Source: Bacteroidales bacterium
GTDB taxonomy: Bacteria > Bacteroidota > Bacteroidia > Bacteroidales > SZUA-534
Length of the DNA: 64,000 nucleotides
Reading direction: 5' to 3'
NCBI GenBank assembly: GCA_045640185.1
Contig: JAZUEN010000020.1
Location: 114,681-178,680, forward strand
Notes under the pieces: model-generated
Told to the model about the DNA's origin: nothing
Seen by the model: only the letters and a program-made list of their open reading frames with translations
Databases searched by the model: none
Position numbers and translations under genes: made by a program
Shown: positions 1-49,333 of the stretch, in pieces
How the letters are laid out: each line of letters starts with the position of its first letter
Position numbering within the stretch: the first letter of the stretch is position 1

Positions 1-2
1 TG

Positions 3-800
3 TTTGAGTTTGCGGCCGGCTTTTTTTCCAATTCGGCTGGCCTGCTTTCCGATGCGGGACACAACTTGAGCGATGTGGCAAGTCTGCTGCTCGCCTTGTT
101 CGCATTCCGTCTAGCGAAGGTCGGGAGCAACAAAACCTACACCTACGGCTACAAGAAAAGCACCATACTCATATCGCTGCTCAATGCACTTATCCTGCTT
201 GCAGCAGTAGCGGCAATCATTTATGAAAGCATCGAAAAGATAGTCAGGCCGGAGGATGTTGATGGTGCCACAATAGCGTGGGTTGCGGCAATCGGCGTTG
301 GCGTGAATGGGCTGACGGCATGGCTGTTTATGAAAGACAAGGACCGCGACCTGAACGTGAAGGGCGCCTACCTGCACATGGCCGCCGATGCACTGGTGTC
401 GATAGGTGTCGTCGTTTCGGGCATAATAATAAGATATTCAGGCATCACCATCATCGACCCCATAATCGGCCTGCTGATTGCCTGCGTAATCATATATTCA
501 ACCTGGGAACTATTGCATGACAGTGTCCGCCTGGCACTAGATGGCGTACCGTCGAACATTGATATTAAGGAACTTACAACCGAAATATCTTCAATTGACG
601 GCATTGTCGATATCCATCATCTGCACATTTGGGCCATAAGCACCACCGAGAACGCCGCCACGGCACACGTCGTCATAAACAACCTGGCCGACATGCAACG
701 CATCAAAATCGACATAAAGCACGAAATGGCAGAACACGGAATATGCCACGCCACACTCGAATTCGAGGAGGTTGGATGCGTCTGCACTGAACATTGCTGA
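3..800 (+). CDS. Cation diffusion facilitator family metal efflux protein (CzcD/ZitB-like), N-terminus cut by the window edge
   Basis: The reading frame stays open upstream of the ORF-track start back to nt 3 (FEFAAGFFSNSAGLLSDAGHNLSDV, which carries the CDF TM2 HxxxD metal-site motif). It has multiple hydrophobic helices and the C-terminal cytoplasmic signature IVDIHHLHIWAIS...AHVVI. Confidence 0.85.
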   Translation, partial: FEFAAGFFSNSAGLLSDAGHNLSDVASLLLALFAFRLAKVGSNKTYTYGYKKSTILISLLNALILLAAVAAIIYESIEKIVRPEDVDGATIAWVAAIGVGVNGLTAWLFMKDKDRDLNVKGAYLHMAADALVSIGVVVSGIIIRYSGITIIDPIIGLLIACVIIYSTWELLHDSVRLALDGVPSNIDIKELTTEISSIDGIVDIHHLHIWAISTTENAATAHVVINNLADMQRIKIDIKHEMAEHGICHATLEFEEVGCVCTEHC

Positions 801-905
801 CCCGCCTACACTATTTTTTTCATTTTGCCTGAACAATTTTGAGGCACGGTTGTTATAGCATCAGATTCAACAAGTATCATACCCATTGATGCTTCAATAT
901 TGGAA

Positions 906-1490
906 ATGATGAAAACAATAGACAGCCATCTGAAAGTGGGCGACAAAGTGTCGTCGTTCTTCGCCGTAGCGACGAAAGGCAGAATAAGCTTTCCGTACGA
1001 CTATAAAGGGCGCTGGATTGCACTGATGGTCAATCCAATGGATGTTGTGCGCACCGATGAGCAGAAGGCAGGCTTCGTCAAGGCGCTTGTGGCACTTGAA
1101 AGCAAGAACTGCCAAGTGGTATGCTTGTCGTCGCGAGGCATGACACGTGACCTTGAGTGGCAGCGCAGCCTTTGCGGTTTTGTGCACGACGCCACACAGC
1201 ATCCGATTATCGACAAGATGCCCGTCATCAACGACTCGGGACTGGCCATAGCGCGTCAAATCCACATAATCGGAATCGACGACAGCCAGCAGCCGAATCC
1301 GCTTGTCTATTACATCGACCCTGAATGTGTGCTGCGTTCAGTGAAGGAATATGTACCCAACGACATGACGTCTGCCTGCTCCGAAACGCTGGCCCACCTG
1401 CAGATTGACCACATGAACGGCATGCTCTCGCAACGCCGGCATATAAGCCTTGAACAGCCAATCGACAATATATGCTGCTGGTACTTTTAA
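906..1490 (+). CDS. Peroxiredoxin-fold (Prx6/1-Cys-like) protein lacking the peroxidatic cysteine
   Basis: It is colinear with 1-Cys peroxiredoxins (LKVGDKV..F.A.T..G.ISF.DY.G.W..L, ...IIDP...). The active-site block HPADFTPVCTTE is replaced by NPMDVVRTDEQ. ATG at 906 is preferred over the TTG at 900. Confidence 0.6.
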   Translation: MMKTIDSHLKVGDKVSSFFAVATKGRISFPYDYKGRWIALMVNPMDVVRTDEQKAGFVKALVALESKNCQVVCLSSRGMTRDLEWQRSLCGFVHDATQHPIIDKMPVINDSGLAIARQIHIIGIDDSQQPNPLVYYIDPECVLRSVKEYVPNDMTSACSETLAHLQIDHMNGMLSQRRHISLEQPIDNICCWYF

Positions 1491-1580
1491 CGGTAATAGT
1501 CCTACGATGGGTGGGGCATCTGTATTTTGAGAAGGGACGGCCGCTTTGACGCAGCCGGCAATTGATAATTTGTGTGTTTC

Positions 1581-1620
1581 GCAAGGGTGCGCATAGGTGC
1601 ACCCTTGCTGCTTTTATTGC
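1581..1620 (+). terminator. Rho-independent terminator downstream of the prx-like gene
   Basis: A perfect 10-bp stem, GCAAGGGTGC (1581-1590) / GCACCCTTGC (1599-1608), is followed by TGCTTTTATTG. Confidence 0.6.
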
Positions 1621-1685
1621 CATGATGCCGAACATTGGCCACTGCCGGAAACAATCTGCCTGACAAATTTCCAAAAACGCCACAA
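1581..1685 (-). repeat. Diverged copy D of the intergenic repeat family (see findings)
   Basis: The exact 16-mer CAATCTGCCTGACAAA (1652-1667) is the reverse complement of 20190-20205. There is flanking similarity and a GC hairpin plus T-run at the equivalent end. Confidence 0.45.
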
Positions 1686-1830
1686 GACAATTTATATAAA
1701 TCCACTATGAAACAGCCGATTATAAGGCAAATGACGGCAACAGGCTTAATTTTCGGTTTTCATTTGAAATAGTTGCGTCAAAAATCCGTATCATTGCAAA
1801 ATTTTTTTTATTCCGAAAAACGTATCAAAA

Positions 1831-3324
1831 ATGGCAAAGATTTTCAACGACGTGTCAAGAACATTTGGTGAGTATTTGCTCATTCCAGGGTTGACAACCA
1901 AACAATGCATTCCAAACAATGTATCGCTCCGCACACCACTTGTAAAATTCAAGAAAGGTGAAGAGTCTGCAATCAACCTCAACATTCCATTCGTTTCAGC
2001 AATCATGCAGTCGGTTTCCGATTCAGGATTGGCAATAGAACTTGCACGAAACGGAGGTCTTTCCTTCATTTTTGGTTCACAGCCTATCGAGTCACAAGCC
2101 GAAATGGTACGCAAAGTTAAGAAGTTCAAGGCAGGCTTTGTCATCAGCGACTCCAACGTTAAGCCTGACAGCACCCTCTACGATGTGCTCGACCTTATCC
2201 AAAAGACAGGCCACTCGACAATAGGCGTAACCGACGACGGGACATCAAACGGCAAGCTGCTGGGCATGATTACAAGCCGCGACTACCGCACCGACAAGGA
2301 CGACCTTAACGACAAGGTGGCTTCACACATGACCCCATTCGAAAAATTGACTGTGGGAAAGGTCGGCATCAGCCTGACTGACGCAAACCAGCTCATTTGG
2401 GACAACAAAATAAACGCATTGCCAATCATCGACGAAAACCAGAAGTTGATGTACTTCGTGTTCCGCAAAGACCACGACAGCCATCACGACAACCCGAACG
2501 AGCTGTCTGATTCCGACAAGAAACTGCTTGTAGGCGCAGGCATCAACACACGCGACTACGAAAAACGCGTTCCCGCCCTTGTCGAAGCTGGCGCCGACGT
2601 GCTTTGCATCGACTCGTCTGACGGCTACTCGGAATGGCAGCTTGAGACTCTGAAGTGGATTAAATCAAAATACGGCGACAAGGTGAAGGTAGGCGCAGGC
2701 AACATTGTGGACAAGGAAGGTTTCGACTACCTTGTAGCCGCAGGAGCCGATTTCATAAAGATTGGCATCGGTGGCGGTTCAATCTGCATCACACGTGAGC
2801 AAAAGGGCATTGGACGTGGCCAGGCCACAGCCGTCATGGACGTTGCAAAAGCCCGCGACGAATATTTCCAGAAGACTGGCATATATGTCCCTATCTGCTC
2901 TGACGGCGGCATTGTGCAAGACTATCACATGGTCTTGGCCCTTGCAATGGGTGCCGACTTCCTGATGATGGGCCGATACTTCGCCCGTTTCGACGAGTCG
3001 CCTACCAAAAAGCTGACTATCGGCAACCGCATTGTCAAGGAATACTGGGGCGAGGGCTCAAACCGCGCAAAGAACTGGCAACGCTACGATATGGGTGGCG
3101 CCGCCACTCTTAAGTTCGAGGAAGGCGTCGACAGCTACGTGCCATACGCAGGCAAGATGAAAGACAACCTGAATCTGACTTTAGGCAAGATCCGCGCCAC
3201 AATGTGCAGCTGCGGTTCGCTGACAATAAAGGAACTGCAGGACAACGCCAAGATAACCGTAGTGTCATCAACATCAATCATTGAGGGTGGCGCTCACGAT
3301 GTAATCCTGAAAGACCAGAACTAA
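1831..3324 (+). CDS. guaB: IMP dehydrogenase
   Basis: 497 aa. It has the catalytic loop [12 protein letters not shown], a central CBS-pair region and ...GEGS...RY..., with typical IMPDH length and order. Confidence 0.9.
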
Positions 3325-3346
3325 CATTGATCACTCATAGATACAG

Positions 3347-3379
3347 AAAAAGCGGTTGCTGTTGCAACCGCTTTTTTTG
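3347..3379. terminator. Bidirectional terminator between convergent guaB and the GNAT gene
   Basis: The stem AGCGGTTGC (3351-3359) / GCAACCGCT (3364-3372) is flanked by an A-run upstream and a T-run downstream. Confidence 0.75.
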
Positions 3380-3396
3380 TGATATAACCGGTTGTG

Positions 3397-3885
3397 CTAC
3401 AGCGCCACCTTCCGCAAATCGCACACCATAATGTACTCTTCAGCATTCTCGGAAATTGTGACGAAGCCGAATTTACGATACAGGCGGACGGCATAGTTCT
3501 GCTTCTGGACGGAAAGCGACACCTTGCCGTACCCGCGAGCCTTGAGCTGGCCGAGCATTGCCGACATTAGCGCTGTGCCTATGCCACAACTGCGGAACTC
3601 CTTGTAGAGCGAAATGGCAAGCGACGGCACAGTATCGTCAATGTGACCGTAGTCGTCCATTATGCGAACCCATACGGCACCTACTATCCTCCCCGAAACC
3701 TCGGCGACAAATGCAATATCGGCATCATGCGTGCCGAAACCCTCAATATACACCTGCAACTCAGGAAGTTTGATGATGTCGCGGCGAGGTGGCTCCACTC
3801 CTTCCGGAATGAAAATAGCCTCGTAAAGGAAATCTTCAAGACAAGCTGTCTCACCATCAGCCAATGGGCGCACACAGTATTCCAT
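3397..3885 (-). CDS. GNAT family N-acetyltransferase
   Basis: 162 aa. It has the acetyl-CoA binding motif RSCGIGTALM..L and a GNAT-like beta-alpha pattern (VGAVWVRIM..., VSLSVQKQNYAVRLYRKFGF). Confidence 0.75.
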   Translation of the reverse strand: MEYCVRPLADGETACLEDFLYEAIFIPEGVEPPRRDIIKLPELQVYIEGFGTHDADIAFVAEVSGRIVGAVWVRIMDDYGHIDDTVPSLAISLYKEFRSCGIGTALMSAMLGQLKARGYGKVSLSVQKQNYAVRLYRKFGFVTISENAEEYIMVCDLRKVAL

Positions 3886-8294: not shown

Positions 8295-8666
8295 TCAAGC
8301 TTTGCCGTCGGGAGTCTTATCGCCCGATATTGCCATCACCTCTTCCCATGTTATGCCCAGCACCTTCATCTCCTGAACCACGCCGGGTATTGTCTGCTCA
8401 AGGAACACCTTTCGGCGGACAGCCTTAATGGACTCCAATGCATTGTCCGACACAAAGAAACCCAAGCCTCGCTTGTTGTAGATTATCTCGTTGAGCTGAA
8501 GATACTCCAGCGAACGGATTACAGTGTTGATGTTCACCTCCAGCTGTGCGCTGAACTCCCTCAAGGCGGGAATACGCTCGTTTGGCTTGTATTCGCCCGA
8601 AAGTATGCTCGTGCAGATGATGTCAACTATCTGCAAGTATATCGGCTTATCGTTGTTGAAAACCAT
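8295..8666 (-). CDS. GntR family transcriptional regulator, short YtrA-like subfamily
   Basis: 123 aa. Winged-HTH block PIYLQIVD.I...I..G.Y....RIPALREFSAQLEVNINTVIRSLEYLQ....IYNKRGLGFFV, with a very short C-terminal part as in YtrA-type regulators. It overlaps the upstream ORF by 20 nt. Confidence 0.85.
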   Translation of the reverse strand: MVFNNDKPIYLQIVDIICTSILSGEYKPNERIPALREFSAQLEVNINTVIRSLEYLQLNEIIYNKRGLGFFVSDNALESIKAVRRKVFLEQTIPGVVQEMKVLGITWEEVMAISGDKTPDGKA

Positions 8667-9252
8667 TAGTCCAATTTTTCAGTGTCACATTCTTCCTCTT
8701 GAAAATCACATATGCGACGGCAATTGACAAAACTGCAACAACCGCAACATACAATTGCATATAGTCACCCAAAAGCTCTGCCAAGGAATGCATGCCTTTA
8801 AATGCAAAAACAAATCCTCCCCACAGGAGTGCCGTAAAGCGACTCAATACCAAGCACAACAACCAATAAACGGAAAAGATAGCAATCAACATCGGAATAG
8901 GACATAATTGTTCAATGTCAAACATCATTCCAACGAAACACATCAAAACACAAGGAAAAATGCCGAAAGCCAGCAACCGGCTCAAATATTTCTCGAATAC
9001 CGACGCAGGAGTCACCATTTCAAACAAGCACTTGTTTTTTGTACAAAACATTGCAAGCCACCCCATAGTGCATGACATCAATACAGCAACAATAGCGCAA
9101 AGGCCGGGGAATTGCCAGATACCCGTCATTGCTCCAATTGCACAACCTACAGCCAGTAAGCCAAACAACAATATCAGAAGAATTCCCATCTCATATACGA
9201 CATGCTTCTGATACATCCAATATCTGCCAAAGTCAAAAAAATCGTTTTTCAT
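8647..9252 (-). CDS. Integral membrane protein (putative permease component 2 of the ABC system)
   Basis: 201 aa with about 6 hydrophobic helices. It shares the motif TPASVFEKYLSRLLAF with its neighbour (LPSSNLEKFLSRILVY), suggesting the two are paralogs. Confidence 0.55.
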   Translation of the reverse strand: MKNDFFDFGRYWMYQKHVVYEMGILLILLFGLLAVGCAIGAMTGIWQFPGLCAIVAVLMSCTMGWLAMFCTKNKCLFEMVTPASVFEKYLSRLLAFGIFPCVLMCFVGMMFDIEQLCPIPMLIAIFSVYWLLCLVLSRFTALLWGGFVFAFKGMHSLAELLGDYMQLYVAVVAVLSIAVAYVIFKRKNVTLKNWTNGFQQR

Positions 9253-9256
9253 AACA

Positions 9257-10084
9257 CTAACATATTACCATATTACAGAATATTCCATAGGCACGACGGA
9301 AGAAGTACAAGCCTATTGCGCCTATCGCCAAACTCACATAGAAGATGAAACTCTCGGTCGTGGCCACACTCATGCTACTGTAGAACACCTTGCCTATAGC
9401 CTCCTCAAAGCCCCATATCAAACCGCCCAGCAAAATGATTGATAAAGACGAGCCCGCCATTTTGTCGCGAAAGCTGAACGCTGAAAAGAAGAGAATGCCG
9501 ACAATGCCAACAAAGAACATGAAATCGCCAAAAGCACTCGAGCTTATGCCGACCCTAATGGAATCGACCGGATGCTTGCCAATAACCACATCATTGAATC
9601 GGCCATGCTGAATTTCGAACACAGAGTCGTCGCGATAAGTAATTGATAAATTGCTCAATGAATTGGTTACTTCGATATCTTCGGGATGAAACAGCTCCAT
9701 ATTCCCGGCACTTTTCGCCACACTGAATTGCTGAGCGAAAAACGTTCCATGAACAGGACTTGCAACAAGCTTCATGCAACATATCAGCATCAGTGGCAGG
9801 CAAATATAGACCAATATGCGAGAGAGAAACTTTTCAAGGTTTGATGAAGGCAACAGCAAATATTGGGCAAGAGCCTTATCGTAATTAAAAAAAAGACGAA
9901 AGCACCATATCACACAAAAAGCATACACAAAACCATAAATGAAGCCATCCATATCAAGCCGGAAGTAATTATCGGCCAGTGCAAAAGCGTTTGCCAAGAC
10001 AATAAAGCCAATTACTAAAGCAAGCATAAAACGACAATAGATGAACTCTCTGACAATATTCATCCATAATAATTTCCAATTCAT
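9257..10084 (-). CDS. Integral membrane protein (putative permease component 1 of the ABC system)
   Basis: 275 aa with hydrophobic helices at both ends and a central roughly 90-aa loop. It lies 3 nt after the ATPase gene. Confidence 0.55.
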   Translation of the reverse strand: MNWKLLWMNIVREFIYCRFMLALVIGFIVLANAFALADNYFRLDMDGFIYGFVYAFCVIWCFRLFFNYDKALAQYLLLPSSNLEKFLSRILVYICLPLMLICCMKLVASPVHGTFFAQQFSVAKSAGNMELFHPEDIEVTNSLSNLSITYRDDSVFEIQHGRFNDVVIGKHPVDSIRVGISSSAFGDFMFFVGIVGILFFSAFSFRDKMAGSSLSIILLGGLIWGFEEAIGKVFYSSMSVATTESFIFYVSLAIGAIGLYFFRRAYGIFCNMVIC

Positions 10085-10087
10085 AGC

Positions 10088-10879
10088 CTATAGGTTTTGC
10101 AGTGTTGACTGTTGAAAGGCATTCCTGACTACTTCATCGCCGGTCACAATAGCCTCAAACAGCGTTTCAATGTCGATATTGGTCTCCTCACCCGAATTGT
10201 CAACAGGCATCACCTGCCCATTTCTGAAAGCAAGCCTTTGGCTAATCTCAGTAGTGCCATGGTTGAAAATTATCTCTTTATTGTTGAGCACCATAATCTG
10301 GTCGATGAGGTTCTCCACATCACGCACCTGGTGAGTGGATATTATTACAGTCTTGTCGTCGGTCATGCACGATGCGACAACCTTGCGGAACTGCTTCTTC
10401 GAAGGAATGTCGAGGCCATTGGTTGGCTCGTCGAGCAACAATAGCGATGTGTTGGTGGCAAGGGCGAAACAAACGAAGACCTTCTTCTTGGTCCCCATCG
10501 ACAACTTTCTGAGGTCAAGGTCCATGTCGAGTTCAAAGCCTTTCAGGCAACTGTCCAGTATCTCATGGCTGAAGTTTGGGTAATAACCGGCATTGGCCTT
10601 TACAAACTTCATAAGCGAAACCGGAGGAAGGTCAAACTCCTCTGGCACAAGAAACATGTCCTCAAGAGCCGAAGGAAGGCGTTGCGACATATCCTTGCCC
10701 TTGAATGACACCGTACCATGCTTGGCACGTAGCAAACCGCTCATCAGATATAGAAGCGTCGATTTCCCCTCGCCGTTCTTGCCCAATAAGCCGTATATCT
10801 TGCCAGCCTCAAATTCAACGTTTAAGTTGCGGAACACCTCGTGTCTCCTATAACCAAACTGCAGATTCTGTATCTTCAT
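10088..10879 (-). CDS. ABC transporter ATP-binding protein
   Basis: Walker A GKNGEGKST, signature LSMGTKKK, Walker B LLLLDEPTNGLD and an H-loop STHQ. Confidence 0.9.
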   Translation of the reverse strand: MKIQNLQFGYRRHEVFRNLNVEFEAGKIYGLLGKNGEGKSTLLYLMSGLLRAKHGTVSFKGKDMSQRLPSALEDMFLVPEEFDLPPVSLMKFVKANAGYYPNFSHEILDSCLKGFELDMDLDLRKLSMGTKKKVFVCFALATNTSLLLLDEPTNGLDIPSKKQFRKVVASCMTDDKTVIISTHQVRDVENLIDQIMVLNNKEIIFNHGTTEISQRLAFRNGQVMPVDNSGEETNIDIETLFEAIVTGDEVVRNAFQQSTLQNL

Positions 10880-10905
10880 AACAATTGTATTTTTACATCG
10901 TTTTA

Positions 10906-10931
10906 TAGTGTTATAGATATATATAACACTA
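10906..10931. promoter_or_regulatory. 26-bp near-perfect palindrome, candidate operator of the ABC/GntR operon
   Basis: TAGTGTTATA-GATATA-TATAACACTA has perfect 10-bp arms. It lies 27 nt upstream of the ABC ATG (10879). On the minus strand it abuts a -7-like TAACATTTG (10932-10940). Confidence 0.5.
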
Positions 10932-11083
10932 CAAATGTTATGAATAATTATTACACCACCAAATGTTTTTTACAATTTTTAGCAAAGACAAACGTATCAT
11001 GCTAATATTATGCAAGATATAGTACCAAACACTTTATTTCCGCCCAAATTATACAACTCGGCTTGAAAACCCGCAATTGACAT

Positions 11084-11091
11084 TATCTTTG
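11084..11091 (+). promoter_or_regulatory. Bacteroidota -7 promoter box (TATCTTTG) for the LytTR gene
   Basis: It matches TAnnTTTG and lies 17 nt upstream of the ATG at 11108. Confidence 0.5.
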
Positions 11092-11107
11092 CGTGAACGA
11101 AAAAGAC

Positions 11108-11905
11108 ATGTCAATTAAAGGATTCTTCAATAATCGCATAGCATACCACGATGTGAACATGTGGGTAATGGGTGCCGCATACGGAGTGGCAGTGTACCTC
11201 ATACTCGTCATTCTGCAACCATTCGGCATATCGATGCATGGCGACGGCCGTTTCGTCAAAATGTTGCCATTCGCCTTTGTCACAATGGCCGGATGCATTG
11301 CTCCTTACTATATCCTGCCACTGGCAAAAAAGGACTTCTTCTATGTAGAAGACTGGACTCGAGGACGATACGCCATACTGCTGCTGGCCATAATTACAAT
11401 CATCTCGATAGGCAACATGGCGATATTCGTATTCGTGCTCGGAGCACCCGTGACGCTGAAAGTGGCTTGGGTTGCGACATGGCAGACATTGGCAATGTGG
11501 TGCATGATATTCGGCATTATAATGCTGCTTCCTGAAAAGAAGAAACAAGCATCTAAGATCCAAGAAGCGCCACAAGCGATTGTTGTCAGAGGCTCCGGCA
11601 AAAACGAGGAACTGACAATAAGAATGGATACCCTGCTATACGTGGAGTCGGCACGCAACTACTGCAACATAGTCACCACCGAAGGCGAGACACAGATTCG
11701 CTCCACAATGACAGCCATCGAAGAGCAGCTAGCTGAATGTAAGACGGTAAGAAAATGCCACAGAGCCTATCTGGCAAACACGGCAAACGTAATGACAATA
11801 AGCGGCAACAGCACTACAGGCCACAAGATGATAATGAAGGGCGGACTGCATTCAGTACCCATCTCCCGTCAGTACGTTAAAGAGATGATGGCCTTGTGCG
11901 AGTGA
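11108..11905 (+). CDS. Membrane-anchored LytTR-domain DNA-binding protein
   Basis: The N-terminal roughly 150 aa has 4 hydrophobic helices. The C-terminal LytTR block is IRMDTLLYVESARNYCNIVTTEGETQIRSTMTAIEEQL.....RKCHRAYLAN...V...SG..........GG..VPISRQY. There is no receiver domain. ATG 11108 is preferred over GTG 11093 because of the -7 box position. Confidence 0.8.
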   Translation: MSIKGFFNNRIAYHDVNMWVMGAAYGVAVYLILVILQPFGISMHGDGRFVKMLPFAFVTMAGCIAPYYILPLAKKDFFYVEDWTRGRYAILLLAIITIISIGNMAIFVFVLGAPVTLKVAWVATWQTLAMWCMIFGIIMLLPEKKKQASKIQEAPQAIVVRGSGKNEELTIRMDTLLYVESARNYCNIVTTEGETQIRSTMTAIEEQLAECKTVRKCHRAYLANTANVMTISGNSTTGHKMIMKGGLHSVPISRQYVKEMMALCE

Positions 11906-12053
11906 TGGAGCAACACGTCCACTTGCATCCTTCGGGAAACACAATATATGAAAATAGGATTCCTTGCTTTCCGAATCACCTCCCAATAAAACTGACAAGC
12001 GTGGCAACCCGTCAGCCGATAGAGGCCTTAGCGGACTATTTTTCGGTTGTGCA

Positions 12054-12170
12054 CCCATTTTGCCCAAAATGAATACTTGCACTCAGCGGCACTACAAACA
12101 GCAATACATAAGCCATTCGTCCCAAAATGGGGCTTGCCATTCGTCCCAAAAACCGCATTTCGGCACAAAA
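12054..12170 (+). repeat. Tract of direct repeats (CCATTyGnCCCAAAA) upstream of the redox-membrane operon
   Basis: The exact 16-mer GCCATTCGTCCCAAAA occurs at 12112-12127 and 12136-12151 (24-bp period). Degenerate copies are CCCATTTTGCCCAAAA (12054-12069) and GCATTTCGGCACAAAA (about 12154-12170). Confidence 0.7.
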
Positions 12171-12264
12171 TCGCAGACTCGTCTCCTGTATATCCCACAT
12201 GTTTTGCAGAGCGAAAAAAGCGAAGTTTCTTTGCCGACGTGATTCAAACAAAAATCGATAAAAA

Positions 12265-12870
12265 ATGATTGAAGGATTACTGATTGGATTGAGTGTTGGC
12301 GCATCGTGCTTAGCTTCATGTGGACCGCTTGTGGTATCGGTCATCATGAAAAACGCGCCTACCACAATGGGCGCATACGCATACCTGGGAAAGTTTCTGG
12401 GCGGACGGCTCATGGCATATATGACAATTGCGCTCGCCATTGGCTTGATGAACAACGTGGAGTGGCAGACGCGGAATTTCGTGGCCACAACCTCACTGCT
12501 GGCAGGTGCCTTGATGTTGGCAAACGCATTTGTGAAACTACCGACACGCTGCGCCAAAGGAAAAGGCATAAAGAACCTTGTGCGCCAGCACGCGCCACAT
12601 ATATATGTACCCACATTAGGATTCATCTCTGCAATAAACGCCTGCCCGCCAATCGTGGCTACGGCAACATCGGCAATAGGCGCGTCAACAATGTCCGAAG
12701 GCATGATGACTTTCGTCATGTTCTTCATCGGATCATCGGTGTACATGCTACCGCTCCCGCTCATATCAATGGCCAAGGACAAAGGAGCTCTGCAGACGAT
12801 AGGCAAATTCGCCTCGGCCATTGTAGGCATAGTGATGATTACAAAAGGTGTCTTAAGTTTTGACTTATAA
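12265..12870 (+). CDS. DsbD_2 / TauE-SafE-like polytopic membrane protein
   Basis: 201 aa. N-terminal helix GLLIGLSVGASCLASCGPLV (the CxxxCGP motif typical of the DsbD_2 / UreH-like transmembrane family) and about 6 TM helices. The 296-aa ORF on the opposite strand is judged spurious. Confidence 0.55.
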   Translation: MIEGLLIGLSVGASCLASCGPLVVSVIMKNAPTTMGAYAYLGKFLGGRLMAYMTIALAIGLMNNVEWQTRNFVATTSLLAGALMLANAFVKLPTRCAKGKGIKNLVRQHAPHIYVPTLGFISAINACPPIVATATSAIGASTMSEGMMTFVMFFIGSSVYMLPLPLISMAKDKGALQTIGKFASAIVGIVMITKGVLSFDL

Positions 12871-12931: not shown

Positions 12932-14056
12932 ATGAAAAACAAACTTTATTCTACAGGCAGCATATTGAGAAGCACACTGCTTACGCTGCCAATGGTACTG
13001 ATAAGCATGATGATGCTAAGCAAGGGTGGCGCGGCCCTGGCTACAAAAGCCGACGGTATCGCCTATCTGGCGACAACACTGTTCTACAGCGCAATGTTCT
13101 TCATGATGCTCTACAAGGGAGCGATAGACAAATGGAGGGCCATAGCATTCACCATTTCGGCAGTGCTGTTCTCGGTGTCGTTCATGCACAACCTCATCGG
13201 GCTGCGTGGCTCGGTAACCTACTCCAGCGAAGAGACCATGATGTGCGAGCTGCCATTTTGCCACATCGTCACAACAATGGTGGTGATCCCTGCGGCGATA
13301 AAGCAGACAATAATATTCCCGGGAAGCATACTGTCGGGCTTCGCATCAATATCGGCAATGTTCGTCATTGTGTTCGGCTCGTCAATAATCTTGGGCAGAG
13401 GATTCTGTTCATGGGGATGCTTCTACGGCGGATGGGACGACGGGTTCAGCCGTGTTGCCCGCAAGCCTGTCATAAAGGCCGTCAATGCAACATATCGCTG
13501 GTTCGCATTCGCAATGCTGATAGTGATGGCACTATGGTCGGCAGCCACACTCGTGCCCGAATACTGCAACTGGCTGTGCCCGTTCAAGCTCGTCACCGAA
13601 CGCGACGCAATTGTCGACACCGAGTCCCTTATCAAGAATATAATAATGATGACCCTCTTTGCCGCCCTAGTGGTAGTCTTGCCCATACTGACCAAAAAGA
13701 GAGTGCAATGCGCCACATTCTGCCCGATGGGTGCCTTTGTGTCGCTATTCAACAAAGTGAGCATCTTTCAGGTTAAAAACAACGAGAGCAAATGCATAGG
13801 ATGTGGCAAATGCCAGAAAATCTGCCCACTGCTTGCCATAAGCAAAGACAACAAGCCAATGCTAAACTGCACAAAATGCGGCAAATGCGTCGACCAATGC
13901 CCGACTGGCGCAATGCAGTTCCACATAAAAGGCACACCCATGGGAAGTAAGATGACTACAGCACGACTTTTGTTCCTCTATCCCGCCTACATACTGATGG
14001 TTACACTGCTTGGCGGAAGTGCAATGGATGCCATAAAATTAATTTTAGGTTATTAA
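12932..14056 (+). CDS. Membrane-bound 4Fe-4S polyferredoxin (NapH/NosR/MauN-like)
   Basis: TM helices with membrane-proximal Cys motifs CSWGCFYGG, CNWLCPF and CATFCPMG. Two C-terminal ferredoxin motifs: CIGCGKCQKICP and CTKCGKCVDQCP. Confidence 0.8.
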   Translation: MKNKLYSTGSILRSTLLTLPMVLISMMMLSKGGAALATKADGIAYLATTLFYSAMFFMMLYKGAIDKWRAIAFTISAVLFSVSFMHNLIGLRGSVTYSSEETMMCELPFCHIVTTMVVIPAAIKQTIIFPGSILSGFASISAMFVIVFGSSIILGRGFCSWGCFYGGWDDGFSRVARKPVIKAVNATYRWFAFAMLIVMALWSAATLVPEYCNWLCPFKLVTERDAIVDTESLIKNIIMMTLFAALVVVLPILTKKRVQCATFCPMGAFVSLFNKVSIFQVKNNESKCIGCGKCQKICPLLAISKDNKPMLNCTKCGKCVDQCPTGAMQFHIKGTPMGSKMTTARLLFLYPAYILMVTLLGGSAMDAIKLILGY

Positions 14057-14081: not shown

Positions 14082-14483
14082 ATGAAATACATATCAAAGA
14101 CAATAGCAGGATTTATGACAATAGCAATGATGCTGATTTTCATAAACATGGAAGGATGGATGCAGATGGCGGCAAAACTGCCATTCATGAAAATAGACCC
14201 TTGGATTTCGGGTGGCGAAGTGACCGACTCGATAGTTGGCGACAATTACAAGATAATGATACACGAGGCTGTATATCAGGGACTTTTTACCGAAGACAGG
14301 AATGGCTACGTGCAGCTTGACGTCAACGGCAGCTACAGCGACACCATTGCAATTGGCAATGTGCAATATAAGCTGGACGCCGACAGCACACAGATTACGT
14401 TGCAAGATGCCGGGACTGGCAATGACGTGCCCGTCAAGAAGTGCAAATCAGACGGCAAGTGGATTATACGCGTGAACATATAA
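14082..14483 (+). CDS. Small exported or membrane-anchored protein, unknown function
   Basis: 133 aa with an N-terminal hydrophobic helix (IAGFMTIAMMLIFI) and a beta-rich C-terminal part. It lies 25 nt after the polyferredoxin gene on the same strand. Confidence 0.5.
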   Translation: MKYISKTIAGFMTIAMMLIFINMEGWMQMAAKLPFMKIDPWISGGEVTDSIVGDNYKIMIHEAVYQGLFTEDRNGYVQLDVNGSYSDTIAIGNVQYKLDADSTQITLQDAGTGNDVPVKKCKSDGKWIIRVNI

Positions 14484-15295: not shown

Positions 15296-15907
15296 ATGGA
15301 AATAAATTCAGCAGACTTCGTCATCAGCAACACCGACTACAAGAAATGCCCCCAGCCGACATTGCCTGAATATGCCTTCATAGGCCGCTCAAACGTCGGC
15401 AAGAGTTCATTGATAAATATGCTGACAAACAACCAGAAACTGGCAAAGGTGTCGGGAAAGCCCGGCAAGACGCAGACCATCAACCACTTTCTCATAAACA
15501 AGAATTGGTATCTGGTCGACCTGCCTGGATACGGGTACGCGCAGACAGCAAAGAAGGACCGTCAAGTGTGGCAGACATTCATTGGCGAATACATCCGCAA
15601 CCGCGAGAACCTGTCGTGCCTGTTCATACTAATCGACTGCCGGCACGAGCCGCTTGCCATCGACCTGAACTTCATCCACTGGGCTGGCGAAAAAGGCATT
15701 CCGATAGCGCTCGTGTTCACCAAGGCCGACAAGCTGTCAAAATCAGCCTTGCAAAAAAACATCGAACTCTACAAGCAACGGCTATTGGAAGATTGGGAAG
15801 AACTTCCCCCCGTATTCTGTACATCGTCTGAAAAACAAATCGGCAAAGGCGAAATACTGGACTTCATTGAATCGGTAAACGATAGTATTTGTAATTCAGC
15901 AGGTTAA
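15296..15907 (+). CDS. engB: Ribosome biogenesis GTP-binding protein YihA/EngB
   Basis: G1 [13 protein letters not shown]3 DLPGYG and G4 TKADK, at about 200 aa. Confidence 0.9.
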
Positions 15908-47464: not shown

Positions 47465-49333
47465 ATGGATAAAAGTTCTTGGATAGGCATTTTGCTTATA
47501 ATGGCCTTGTTGTTCGGATGGAGCTACTTCACCCGTCCATCGGCAGAAGAAATGCAACGCTACCGCGAAAAGCAGGATTCAATTGCCCGCGTTGAACGCC
47601 AACGCCAGCTTGACCTTGAAATAGAAAAGGCACAGGCTTCTGAGCAGGCACAATTCGCATCACCTGAAGAAAACGATTCTGTGGCAAACGCCATGCTTCG
47701 CAACCAATATGGAGATTTTGCTCCATTTGCCACTGGCGAGCGTGAATTCTACACTGTGGAAAACAACCTGATGAAGATTAAGTTCACCAACCTTGGCGGA
47801 CGGATAGCATCTGTGGAACTGAAAAATTACGACACATACGACTCGCTGCCTGTTGTGCTTTTCGACGGCGACTCCACAATTTTCAGCCTCGGGTTCTTTG
47901 CACAGAACCGTCGCATAGAGACTGGCAAGCTGTTCTTCACCCCTTCTGAGAACATCAGCACCGCAGAAGTGACTGACGACTCGCTGGTCGTATCCTTCAG
48001 CATCAGCCTCGACAACGACCGCACAATGGACTATGTATATACCATCTACCCTGACAGTTACGTTGTTGGGTTCAATGTCAGAATGCACAACATGAACAAA
48101 CTGGTGCCTGCCAACTCGGGCTACCTGACACTGAACTGGGAATCGTACATAACAGGATTTGAGAAAGGCCGCAAGTGGGAAACAATGAACTCAACCATCG
48201 CCTACCGCTACTTTAACGACGATGTTGAGCAGCTTAACGAGACCAGCGACTCTGACGATGAGACTATAAACAGCCGCTTGCAATGGATATCGTTCAAGCA
48301 ACACTTTTTCAATGCGACTCTGATATCTAAAGACGGCTTTGTAAACGCATCGCTCAAGCAACGCAAGGAAACTGTCAACCCGAAATATGTGAAACTGTTC
48401 ACTTCGGAGATTTCGTTGCCATACGATGGAAAATCTGAAGAAGACATTGAGATGCAGATGTTCTTCGGTCCGAACCACTTCAAGACACTTAAGGCTCTGG
48501 ACATCGACCTGCAGAACATCATTCCACTTGGCCGAAGCATCTTCCGCTGGGTAAATGTAGGCATCGTAATACCGACATTCAACTTCCTTGGACGCTTTAT
48601 CGACAATTTTGGCGTCATAATATTGATAATGACCATATTGATCAAGCTAGTGCTGTTCCCGTTCACCTACAAGTCGTATATGTCGACTGCAAAGATGGGC
48701 GCACTGAAACCTGAAATGGACAAGCTCAACGAAAAGTATCCGAAGCAGGAGGACGCCATGAAGAAGCAGCAAGCCATGATGGACCTTTACAAAAAGGCTG
48801 GAGTGAACCCAATGGGCGGATGTCTGCCAATGTTGCTACAGATGCCTTTGCTCATCGCCATGTTCCGCTTCTTCCCTGCATCAATCGAACTGCGCCACGA
48901 GAGTTTCCTTTGGGTTGAAGACCTCTCGACCTACGACTCGGTGCTCAACCTGCCATTCAGCATTCCGTTCTATGGCGACCACGTGAGCCTGTTCTGCCTG
49001 CTGATGACAATAGTGAACATCATCTACATAAAAACAAGCGGTTCAACACAAAGTGGAGGCCAGCAAATGCCTGGCATGAAGCTGATGATGTATATGATGC
49101 CTGTGATGATGCTGTTCTGGTTCAACGACTACGCAGCCGCATTGAGCTACTACTACTTCATATCGCTGCTGATAACAATTGTGCAGACCTACATCATGCG
49201 CCGCTCGGTAAATGCCGAGGAACTGCTTGCCAAGGTTAAAGCCGCACAACTGAAAAAGACTCCGACCAAATCGCGTTTCCAACAGCGTATGGAAGCCGCA
49301 GCAAAGCAACGCGGAATAAAGTTGCCTAAATAA
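47465..49333 (+). CDS. yidC: Membrane protein insertase YidC (long Bacteroidota form)
   Basis: 622 aa. An N-terminal TM is followed by a large periplasmic domain. The C-terminal 60-kDa IMP core is ...GVIILIMTILIKLVLFPFTYKSYMSTAKM..L.PEM..L..KY......KQQAMMDLYKKAGVNPMGGCLPMLLQMPLLIAMF. Confidence 0.95.
   Translation: MDKSSWIGILLIMALLFGWSYFTRPSAEEMQRYREKQDSIARVERQRQLDLEIEKAQASEQAQFASPEENDSVANAMLRNQYGDFAPFATGEREFYTVENNLMKIKFTNLGGRIASVELKNYDTYDSLPVVLFDGDSTIFSLGFFAQNRRIETGKLFFTPSENISTAEVTDDSLVVSFSISLDNDRTMDYVYTIYPDSYVVGFNVRMHNMNKLVPANSGYLTLNWESYITGFEKGRKWETMNSTIAYRYFNDDVEQLNETSDSDDETINSRLQWISFKQHFFNATLISKDGFVNASLKQRKETVNPKYVKLFTSEISLPYDGKSEEDIEMQMFFGPNHFKTLKALDIDLQNIIPLGRSIFRWVNVGIVIPTFNFLGRFIDNFGVIILIMTILIKLVLFPFTYKSYMSTAKMGALKPEMDKLNEKYPKQEDAMKKQQAMMDLYKKAGVNPMGGCLPMLLQMPLLIAMFRFFPASIELRHESFLWVEDLSTYDSVLNLPFSIPFYGDHVSLFCLLMTIVNIIYIKTSGSTQSGGQQMPGMKLMMYMMPVMMLFWFNDYAAALSYYYFISLLITIVQTYIMRRSVNAEELLAKVKAAQLKKTPTKSRFQQRMEAAAKQRGIKLPK

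Follow-up and report, generated by a model that had tools for sequence, protein, structure and literature searches.

A membrane-anchored LytTR regulator of Bacteroidales with a predicted four-repeat operator at the promoter of a DsbD_2/NapH-like operon

Introduction

Which promoter does a membrane-anchored LytTR protein control, and through which bases of the DNA does it act? The question is raised by a locus in a 64,000-nucleotide stretch of contig JAZUEN010000020.1 from a Bacteroidales bacterium (the window, whose position 1 is the first letter of the stretch). In this locus, the gene of a LytTR regulator with transmembrane (TM) helices (11108-11905, forward strand) is followed by a 359-bp spacer and by an operon whose first gene encodes a DsbD_2-family membrane protein. 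We refer to this operon as the cargo operon. A first-pass annotation of the same DNA had proposed that direct repeats in the spacer form a LytTR operator, which would link the regulator to the cargo operon. Membrane-anchored transcription factors are abundant in gut Bacteroidota, and to our knowledge almost none of them has a known binding site, target or signal.

We analyzed the locus together with its relatives. The proposed link was supported by the conservation of the repeats in orthologous loci, by a repeat array that is independent of the cargo, by control operons without a LytTR gene and by the resemblance of the repeats to the AlgR box. On the basis of these sequence comparisons, the regulator is a member of a sizeable, uncharacterized Bacteroidales family with a stereotyped, predicted four-repeat operator. 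It probably acts through four sites, R1 to R4, on the cargo promoter, most likely as an activator. The locus and its relatives provide a complete, testable wiring diagram from sequence: a regulator, an operator of four sites whose bases are defined, a promoter and a target of three genes.

Repeats and promoter upstream of the cargo operon

The 16-mer GCCATTCGTCCCAAAA is present in two exact copies on the forward strand, at 12112-12127 (R1) and 12136-12151 (R2), with a start-to-start distance of 24 bp, as the first-pass annotation had reported. When up to three mismatches were allowed, these were still its only occurrences on both strands of the window. The chance expectation of a second exact 16-mer inside the 359-bp spacer is about 1e-7. 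With a 14-nt matrix of the regulator family (see below), R1 and R2 each scored 17.9 bits, the joint best match in the window. Two degenerate copies with 75% identity to the 16-mer are located at 12054-12069 and 12155-12170. The latter (GCATTTCGGCACAAAA, forward strand, 9.5 bits) had been placed at about 12154; its true start is 12155, 19 bp downstream of R2, and it is counted here as R3. The fourth site, R4 (CCTGTATATCCCACA, 12185-12199, forward strand, with the core TCCCA at 12193-12197), begins 30 bp after R3, and its end is 5 nt from the -33 element of the cargo promoter. The earlier description of the operator as a repeat pair was right about the direct orientation but not about the number, which is four, the promoter-proximal R4 having been missed.

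A putative Bacteroidetes-type promoter of the cargo operon spans 12203-12233 on the forward strand. It consists of the -33 element TTTG (12203-12206), a 19-nt spacer and the -7 box TTTCTTTG (12226-12233), and was read from the conserved pattern TTTG-N19-TnnnTTTG; the Bacteroides promoter layout quoted by Zou et al. is TTTG / TAnnTTTG (PMC6193735). The same -33/-7 layout was found throughout the family. A scan for E. coli-type sigma-70 promoters gave nothing at the cargo promoter and a scan for intrinsic terminators gave nothing useful, both as expected for Bacteroidetes.

Orthologous loci were gathered by exact-protein look-ups and one genome scan with the regulator protein, which yielded a single locus. 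Six independent loci (L001/L005, L002, L003, L004, L008 and L009) had regulators with 48-73% identity, and an additional locus (L010) had a regulator with 35% identity. The genes of the regulator, the DsbD_2 protein, the polyferredoxin and a protein of 116-155 aa follow each other in this order in every locus extending far enough. The genes upstream of the regulator vary and encode an ABC ATPase, IPPT, a formyltransferase, PrmA, EI24 or DUF1846. Since both flanks differ from locus to locus while the four genes stay together, these genes travel as a module.

Seven orthologous promoter sequences, taken from the region that precedes the DsbD_2 gene, were aligned. The invariant columns fell almost wholly into six blocks, namely TCCCAAA in R1, G...TTCGTCCCAAA in R2, CACA in R3, T..TCCCA in R4, TTT in the -33 element and TT..TTTGC in the -7 box, and the sequence between these blocks, including the spacer of the promoter, was not conserved. 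R2 was the best conserved of the four sites. The distances were 23-24 bp between R1 and R2, 19 bp between R2 and R3 in all orthologues, and 30 bp between R3 and R4, with R2 to R4 measuring exactly 49 bp in 6/6 orthologous loci. The first-pass annotation had staked its operator on loci that keep both the regulator and the cargo genes, and in all six of these, as well as in the 35%-identical homologue, the repeats indeed lie upstream of the DsbD_2 gene in a fixed register with the promoter.

In L001 (5785-6219, reverse strand) and L005 (5332-5766, reverse strand), a 144-aa DUF3592 gene is found between the regulator stop codon and the operator. The operator and the promoter are intact despite this insertion, and the repeats have remained next to the promoter. 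L003 has a terminator-like hairpin between the regulator stop codon and R1. The cargo operon has its own promoter, because the insertion and the hairpin split the regulator from the repeats.

The degenerate copy at 12054-12069 (CCCATTTTGCCCAAAA, forward strand) was rejected as a fifth site. It is a degenerate copy of the 16-mer as the first-pass annotation had stated, but its role as an operator site did not hold up, as it is absent from all orthologous spacers and scores -3.1 bits with the family matrix because its four mismatches hit the informative CGTC core. It is probably no operator site. A perfect 7-bp palindrome, CATTTTG-CC-CAAAATG (12056-12071), overlaps this copy. The part of the spacer preceding R1 (11906-12111, ~206 bp) showed no similarity to any related locus, whether to the orthologues or to the DUF3592 gene of L001/L005. 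In the orthologues L004 and L009, R1 begins on the regulator stop codon. The segment 11906-12111 is probably an insertion. No second site cluster and no second member of the regulator family was found elsewhere in the window. Isolated matrix matches of 14-15 bits at 15420-15433 and 47795-47808, both on the reverse strand, lie inside coding regions without a partner site ~20 bp away and are probably due to chance.

The repeat array in distant paralogues

When metagenomes were scanned with the family alignment, 440 relatives were confirmed, from which 80 loci with 23-33% identity were kept. Two further paralogues came from look-ups, and the distant paralogues overall are 23-35% identical. Among the 56 distinct downstream sequences, ~50 carried four same-strand repeats right after the regulator stop codon, followed by a -33/-7 promoter and the next gene. 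The 14-nt family matrix was built from these post-stop regions, with a match threshold of 6 bits, and its consensus is G[TC][CT]AT[TC]CGTC[AC] (GYYATYCGTCM). Densities and spacings were counted in 65 non-redundant loci of relatives with 23-73% identity. Matches occurred at 16.1/kb on the coding strand within 210 bp past the stop codon, compared to 1.0/kb per strand elsewhere in the loci. The most frequent number of sites per locus was four (31 of the 65 loci), and at least three sites were present in 51. The site spacing had its mode at 20 bp (100/158) and was 19-23 bp in 131/158; the 24-bp period of the first-pass annotation is thus genuine in the clade of the window but is not the mode of the family. 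In 39 loci, the first site lies on the last base or two of the regulator stop codon. The counterpart of R4 in the paralogues is GTGTGTCCC or GCTGTCTGTCAC, and R1 to R4 together span 60-63 bp in the paralogues compared to 72-73 bp in the window clade.

Two unrelated classes of genes are found downstream of the array. In 41 loci, the next gene encodes a CarboxypepD_reg/Plug outer-membrane (TonB-like) protein, and the gene after it a DUF2141 protein or a 180-aa protein. The DsbD_2 operon follows in 13 loci, plus a few in which the contig ends or the gene call failed. Since the regulator, and not the cargo, is common to all of these loci, the repeats very probably belong to the regulator.

Because the first counts were made on the training regions, we rebuilt the matrix from the TonB-like-cargo loci only. 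With this matrix, R1 and R2 ranked third and fourth among all positions of the window on both strands (128 kb) and formed the best pair in the window. The pair score, which allows a spacing of 18-25 bp, was 29.8 bits, compared to 14.7 +/- 2.5 with a maximum of 25.7 in Markov-shuffled windows, and 0/200 of these reached it.

Autoregulation through the same motif was considered and rejected. Matrix matches within 300 bp upstream of the regulator genes occurred at 0.82/kb, which equals the background, and only two loci had at least two.

Some family members depart from the common arrangement. L030 (4298-4440) has five repeats instead of four, with one ATTCGTCCC unit duplicated at a 21-bp period, and both L029 and L030 have an extra ATCCCAAA upstream. 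In L024 (2779-3558), L026, L031, L083 and L089, no repeat array follows the stop codon. The downstream DNA of L024 appears to contain a zinc-finger, transposase-like ORF, and neither an array nor a gene of the cargo classes was found downstream in L031, L083 and L089. These array-less members may be disrupted or orphan regulators.

Operons without an adjacent LytTR gene

A search with the DsbD_2 protein gave only close orthologues, and LytTR-free operons were found via the NapH-like protein. This provided three control operons with polyferredoxins of 51-55% identity. An unrelated 183-aa protein is encoded upstream of the DsbD_2 gene in L098/L099, and a GH9 gene abuts it in L100. Neither operon has a repeat of at least 4 bits in the 300 bp upstream, and both controls behave as the operator hypothesis predicts.

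Several observations weigh against an activator operator that belongs to this regulator. The third control (L101/L102) keeps four repeats (TCCATTCGTCCC, GCCGTTCGTCCC, GTGTTTGTCCC and TTTACGTCCC, at 21/19/22 bp), although the two genes upstream are GmrSD-type and no LytTR gene is present within 3.2 kb; an operator can therefore exist without an adjacent regulator gene. The family matrix was counted in the same regions on which it was trained, and only the rebuild from TonB-like-cargo loci is independent. R4 of the window clade (TATCCCA) has no CGTC core and scores poorly with the family matrix. The spacing in this clade is 24/19/30 bp, as opposed to the regular 20-22 bp of the paralogues, and R2 is thus out of helical phase with R1, R3 and R4. 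Finally, the promoter of the TonB-like-cargo paralogues is near consensus (TTTG-N19-TATCTTTG), which is less typical of activator dependence and is compatible with repression.

In L101 and L102 (1-3237), the GmrSD_N/GmrSD_C genes, which belong to modification-dependent restriction, lie directly upstream of the intact operator. It looks as if the insertion of defense genes displaced or replaced the regulator, which may lie beyond the inserted defense island or elsewhere in that genome.

The retention of the repeats in L101/L102 would also be accounted for if they bound another regulator of the DsbD_2/NapH-like operon and the LytTR gene were merely a frequent neighbor. The same holds for L001/L005, where the repeats stay with the promoter when an unrelated gene splits off the LytTR gene. 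However, the same motif, with the same strand, number and spacing, follows TM-LytTR genes in front of unrelated TonB-like cargo, and two LytTR-free operons have no sites. Furthermore, the motif resembles a proven LytTR box, and no other conserved DNA-binding protein was found in the orthologue neighborhoods. We consider a different regulator to be very unlikely.

A recent duplication or slippage, a remnant of a mobile element or a structured RNA leader could also produce repeats of this kind, and it would fit with the identity of R1 and R2 at 16/16 positions and with the segment 11906-12111, which is unique to this genome and probably inserted. Nevertheless, the sites keep their positions even where the regulators share only 23-73% identity and the intervening DNA has diverged, which contradicts a random duplication or a mobile remnant. 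The sites also lie upstream of the predicted promoter, and no clusters of the motif are present elsewhere in the window. We find such an origin hardly credible. An RNA element was rejected, as 10800-12400 gave no Rfam match at a permissive threshold and the folding of 12100-12210 was ordinary (z = -0.35).

The regulator protein

The gene at 11108-11905 had been described as encoding 266 aa; its position stands, whereas its length is 265 aa plus the stop codon. The ATG at 11108 is backed by the alignment of the family proteins. A putative promoter of the regulator gene was read from the sequence at 11063-11091 (forward strand), with TTGA at 11063-11066, 17 nt and the -7 box TATCTTTG at 11084-11091. 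This box fits the Bacteroides -7 consensus TAnnTTTG as quoted in PMC6193735, and, given where it lies, the GTG at 11093 is unlikely to be the start codon.

The gene was assigned to a membrane-anchored one-component LytTR regulator by Pfam, an AlphaFold2 model and Foldseek. Pfam LytTR (PF04397) matched residues 170-263 with an E of 4.8e-16 and 59.2 bits (cutoff 22.6), covering positions 5-96 of the 98 in the profile. No Pfam family matched residues 1-146, and hence the protein has no receiver (Response_reg) domain. The AlphaFold2 model, which was built on 20 homologues and had a mean pLDDT of 78, showed long helices at 18-36, 41-73, 85-109 and 117-140 in the N-terminal half, so that the four-TM region spans about residues 17-140. 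A disordered linker (142-154) and a beta-rich domain with about ten strands follow. The four N-terminal TM helices, the C-terminal LytTR domain and the lack of a receiver that had been read from the sequence at first pass agree with both Pfam and the model. In Foldseek, the C-terminal domain matched 4cbv (ComE), 3d6w and 3bs1/4g4k/4xqj (AgrA) with E values of 3e-7 to 2e-4 and target TM-scores of 0.75-0.83. According to the model, this domain is a true all-beta LytTR fold as in AgrA and ComE. The helical part had no match in the PDB.

MHYT (PF03707) had no match in the regulator at E <= 0.01, and the NCBIfam matches to BtsR and LytR were confined to the LytTR part, with scores far under the cutoffs. 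When the TM domain alone was used as the query, 41 cluster representatives were found among 1.84 billion proteins. Nearly all of them have 265-306 aa, which suggests at the sequence level that the domain is confined essentially to this TM-LytTR architecture. The four-helix sensor domain is of a previously unannotated type. The LQPFG motif is conserved after TM1 in the family alignment, and the conserved residues LQPFG, W83, N103 and T127 are located at helix ends or inside helices. The loops on the outside are short, with only ~5-7 residues. Together with the conserved residues, these short loops in the model suggest that sensing is intramembrane or via a protein partner, and the signal is probably intramembrane or envelope-related.

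Comparison with known LytTR systems

The core of the repeats, CCATTCGTC, shares 8 of 9 positions with the AlgR box CCGTTCGTC, which was defined by ChIP-seq and footprints (PMC4787818), and L101 has the exact nine bases. AlgR of Pseudomonas aeruginosa thus resembles the regulator in its LytTR DNA-binding domain and in having nearly the same recognition core. However, AlgR is a soluble protein with a receiver domain and a partner kinase, and its sites are often single or widely scattered, in contrast to the membrane anchor, the missing receiver domain and the tight four-site array next to the regulator's own gene.

[quoted passage not shown] For example, those of HdrR and BrsR are 9-bp direct repeats that are separated by 12 bp and lie 4-11 bp upstream of -35 (PMC6193735). 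AgrA, ComE and PlnC likewise recognize imperfect direct repeats just upstream of -35, which are 9 bp long with 12-13 bp spacers and recur about every two helical turns. In those systems one LytTR domain binds each repeat, as is presumed here, and the C-terminal model superposes on AgrA and ComE. They differ from the present system in being phosphorylation-controlled response regulators with a repeat pair, as opposed to four repeats, no receiver and a -33/-7 promoter.

A close parallel is CoxC of Afipia carboxidovorans, a membrane-bound MHYT-LytTR repressor that is released by CO and binds three direct repeats overlapping the -35 box (PMC11347149). Its authors described membrane association as unprecedented among the described LytTR regulators (PMC11347149), and CoxC was the sole characterized membrane-bound LytTR regulator found in the literature that we searched. 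Both proteins are one-component regulators in which a disordered linker connects an N-terminal TM sensor to a C-terminal LytTR domain and a receiver is missing. In both, here by prediction, the controlled operon has at its promoter an operator with more than two direct repeats. However, the sensor of CoxC is a seven-helix, copper-binding MHYT domain with three MHYT motifs, whereas that of the present regulator is built of four helices and matches neither MHYT nor any other Pfam family. The three 8-bp repeats of CoxC, TTNNNGCN, overlap -35, whereas the four GYYATYCGTCM repeats end upstream of -33. The two proteins also differ in phylum and in cargo.

The LRS (HdrRM/BrsRM) and the LRS-like operons of Bacteroides share with the present locus a receiver-less LytTR regulator and direct repeats just upstream of a promoter. 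They differ in the need for a co-transcribed membrane inhibitor (DUF2154/NfeD in Bacteroides), which has no counterpart here, where the upstream genes vary. The repeats of the LRS are autoregulatory and lie upstream of their own operon, where the present motif is at the background density given above, and the repeat sequences are not the same. The first-pass annotation had regarded the signal and the regulon of TM-LytTR proteins in Bacteroidota as undescribed. Bacteroides LytTR proteins with TM segments were already noted in silico by Zou et al. in 2018, behind an NfeD/DUF2154 membrane-protein gene (PMC6193735), but those proteins belong to another operon type.

Lacking a partner, a receiver and an MHYT domain, the regulator is neither an LRS nor a response regulator, and its sensor half is not homologous to that of CoxC. 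By analogy, it would work like a CoxC-type one-component membrane LytTR regulator, a resemblance that is functional only. The CadC target promoter adjoins the cadC gene. Regulators of the ToxR/CadC type (PMC10269533) also bind DNA while anchored in the cytoplasmic membrane. They have an N-terminal winged-helix OmpR-type domain, a single TM helix and a large periplasmic sensor, as opposed to a C-terminal LytTR domain after a four-helix bundle with almost no periplasmic exposure.

Activation or repression of the cargo promoter

In the mechanism that we favor, the LytTR domains of several protomers would bind the four same-strand direct repeats R1-R4, with a unit of about GYYATYCGTC(C/A). One LytTR domain would occupy each repeat, as in the AgrA-DNA structures. 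The repeats would sit immediately upstream of the -33 element, from which the promoter at 12203-12233 would drive a three-gene envelope redox module. A flexible linker would join the TM domain to the cytoplasmic LytTR domain, and upon a signal reaching the TM domain the regulator would recruit or stabilize RNA polymerase. Because the same-strand sites are about two helical turns apart, four tethered protomers can approach the DNA from one side, and because the array of the window clade is longer by about one helical turn, R1 and R4 stay in phase.

An activator is favored because the array ends short of the -33 element, by 5 nt, and at no locus reaches into the promoter, and because the -7 boxes of the window clade (TTTCTTTG, TTACTTTG and TTCATTTG) are without the consensus A. 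Provided that the operator is assigned correctly, the sequence evidence makes us lean modestly towards activation over repression.

With the same operator, the regulator could instead repress the promoter, or it could work as a switch that occupies the DNA at rest and comes off when the signal arrives, like CoxC. In that case, four tethered protomers would cover the DNA as far as the -33 element and obstruct RNA polymerase or contacts with the UP element. CoxC is indeed a membrane-bound LytTR protein that represses via three direct repeats (PMC11347149), the cargo promoter of the paralogues (TTTG-N19-TATCTTTG) is near the Bacteroides consensus and might need no activator, and the end of R4 is only 5 nt from -33. 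However, the CoxC operator overlaps the -35 element, whereas no overlap with the -33, the -7 or the start region was observed in >50 loci. The missing consensus A in the -7 box of the clade is typical of weaker, activator-assisted promoters, and most LytTR proteins with repeats just upstream of -35 are activators (PMC6193735). We regard a repressor as unlikely.

A more far-reaching form of activation would make this regulator the first example of a cis-coupled, membrane-tethered class in Bacteroidales with an operator on the stop codon, a new intramembrane LQPFG sensor and interchangeable cargo. Co-translational membrane insertion (transertion) would hold the regulator gene and the adjacent promoter at the membrane, where the four tethered LytTR domains would all bind from the same side of the double helix, and the window clade would have gained one whole helical turn. 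The LQPFG domain would read, for example, the membrane redox state, the quinone state or a lipid-soluble compound, and the regulator would then switch on the thiol/ferredoxin redox module or the TonB-like uptake genes. We put this forward only tentatively and consider it doubtful in its full form.

The simpler reading, in which the regulator activates the cargo promoter through R1-R4, would assign a predicted dedicated regulator to the widespread, uncharacterized module of DsbD_2 and NapH-like polyferredoxin, and the inducing conditions of the regulator would point to the function of this module. The unannotated sensor domain would broaden the CoxC-type class of membrane-bound LytTR regulators. 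Given a signal, the compact regulator-operator-promoter cassette (about 900 bp + 120 bp) could also become a synthetic-biology tool for Bacteroides.

The cargo operon and neighboring genes

The downstream DsbD_2/NapH-like operon named at first pass was recovered with Pfam and comprises three genes on the forward strand. The first (12265-12870) encodes a DsbD_2-family membrane protein of 201 aa (Pfam DsbD_2, E 1.7e-13) with the Cys motifs SCLASCGP and NACPP. The CxxxC in the first helix reads SCLASCGP in the window and GIACISICLPG in the class B cargo genes (e.g., L018 from about 2280), and the CPP motif (NACPP) of the window protein lies in a later helix. These motifs are compatible with a thiol-disulfide relay across the membrane. 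The DsbD_2 sequence had no usable match among PDB chains, and an orthologue is named 'sulfite exporter TauE/SafE family protein' by NCBI.

The second gene (12932-14056) encodes a NapH/MauN-like membrane polyferredoxin of 374 aa with Fer4 families and Fer4_5, and >2000 homologues of it were found. It matched the NapH models TIGR02163 and PRK09477 with an E of 1e-18 and 67 bits, compared to cutoffs of 213 and 234, and no nap genes are present near it. The protein is NapH-like only, below the NapH family cutoffs. The third gene (14082-14483) encodes a small protein of 133 aa with an N-terminal hydrophobic anchor and a conserved position, which matched nothing in Pfam, NCBIfam or the PDB and was assigned to no family. 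A gene of 116-155 aa fills this position in every related operon. The operon ends after it, since the next gene differs between loci. From their sequences, the cargo proteins are predicted to form an envelope thiol/electron-transfer module.

A divergent group of genes lies on the other side of the regulator gene (8295-10879, reverse strand). It consists of a GntR-family regulator (8295-8666), two unannotated multi-pass membrane proteins (8647-9252 and 9257-10084) and an ABC ATPase (10088-10879). The group resembles a YtrA-like GntR/ABC module and is not kept beside the LytTR gene at other loci.

Among the paralogous loci, the regulator gene of L016/L017 is divergent from a porP-gldK-gldL-gldM (type IX secretion) cluster (1-3770, reverse strand), an adjacency that may be a coincidence. 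In the TonB-like-cargo loci (L016, L033, L038 and most others; e.g., L033 1871-1990), the ATG lies 4 nt past the -7 box (TATCTTTG-CGGC-ATG), so the transcript would be leaderless or nearly so. In most of these loci, exactly 77 nt separate the regulator stop codon from the -33 element.

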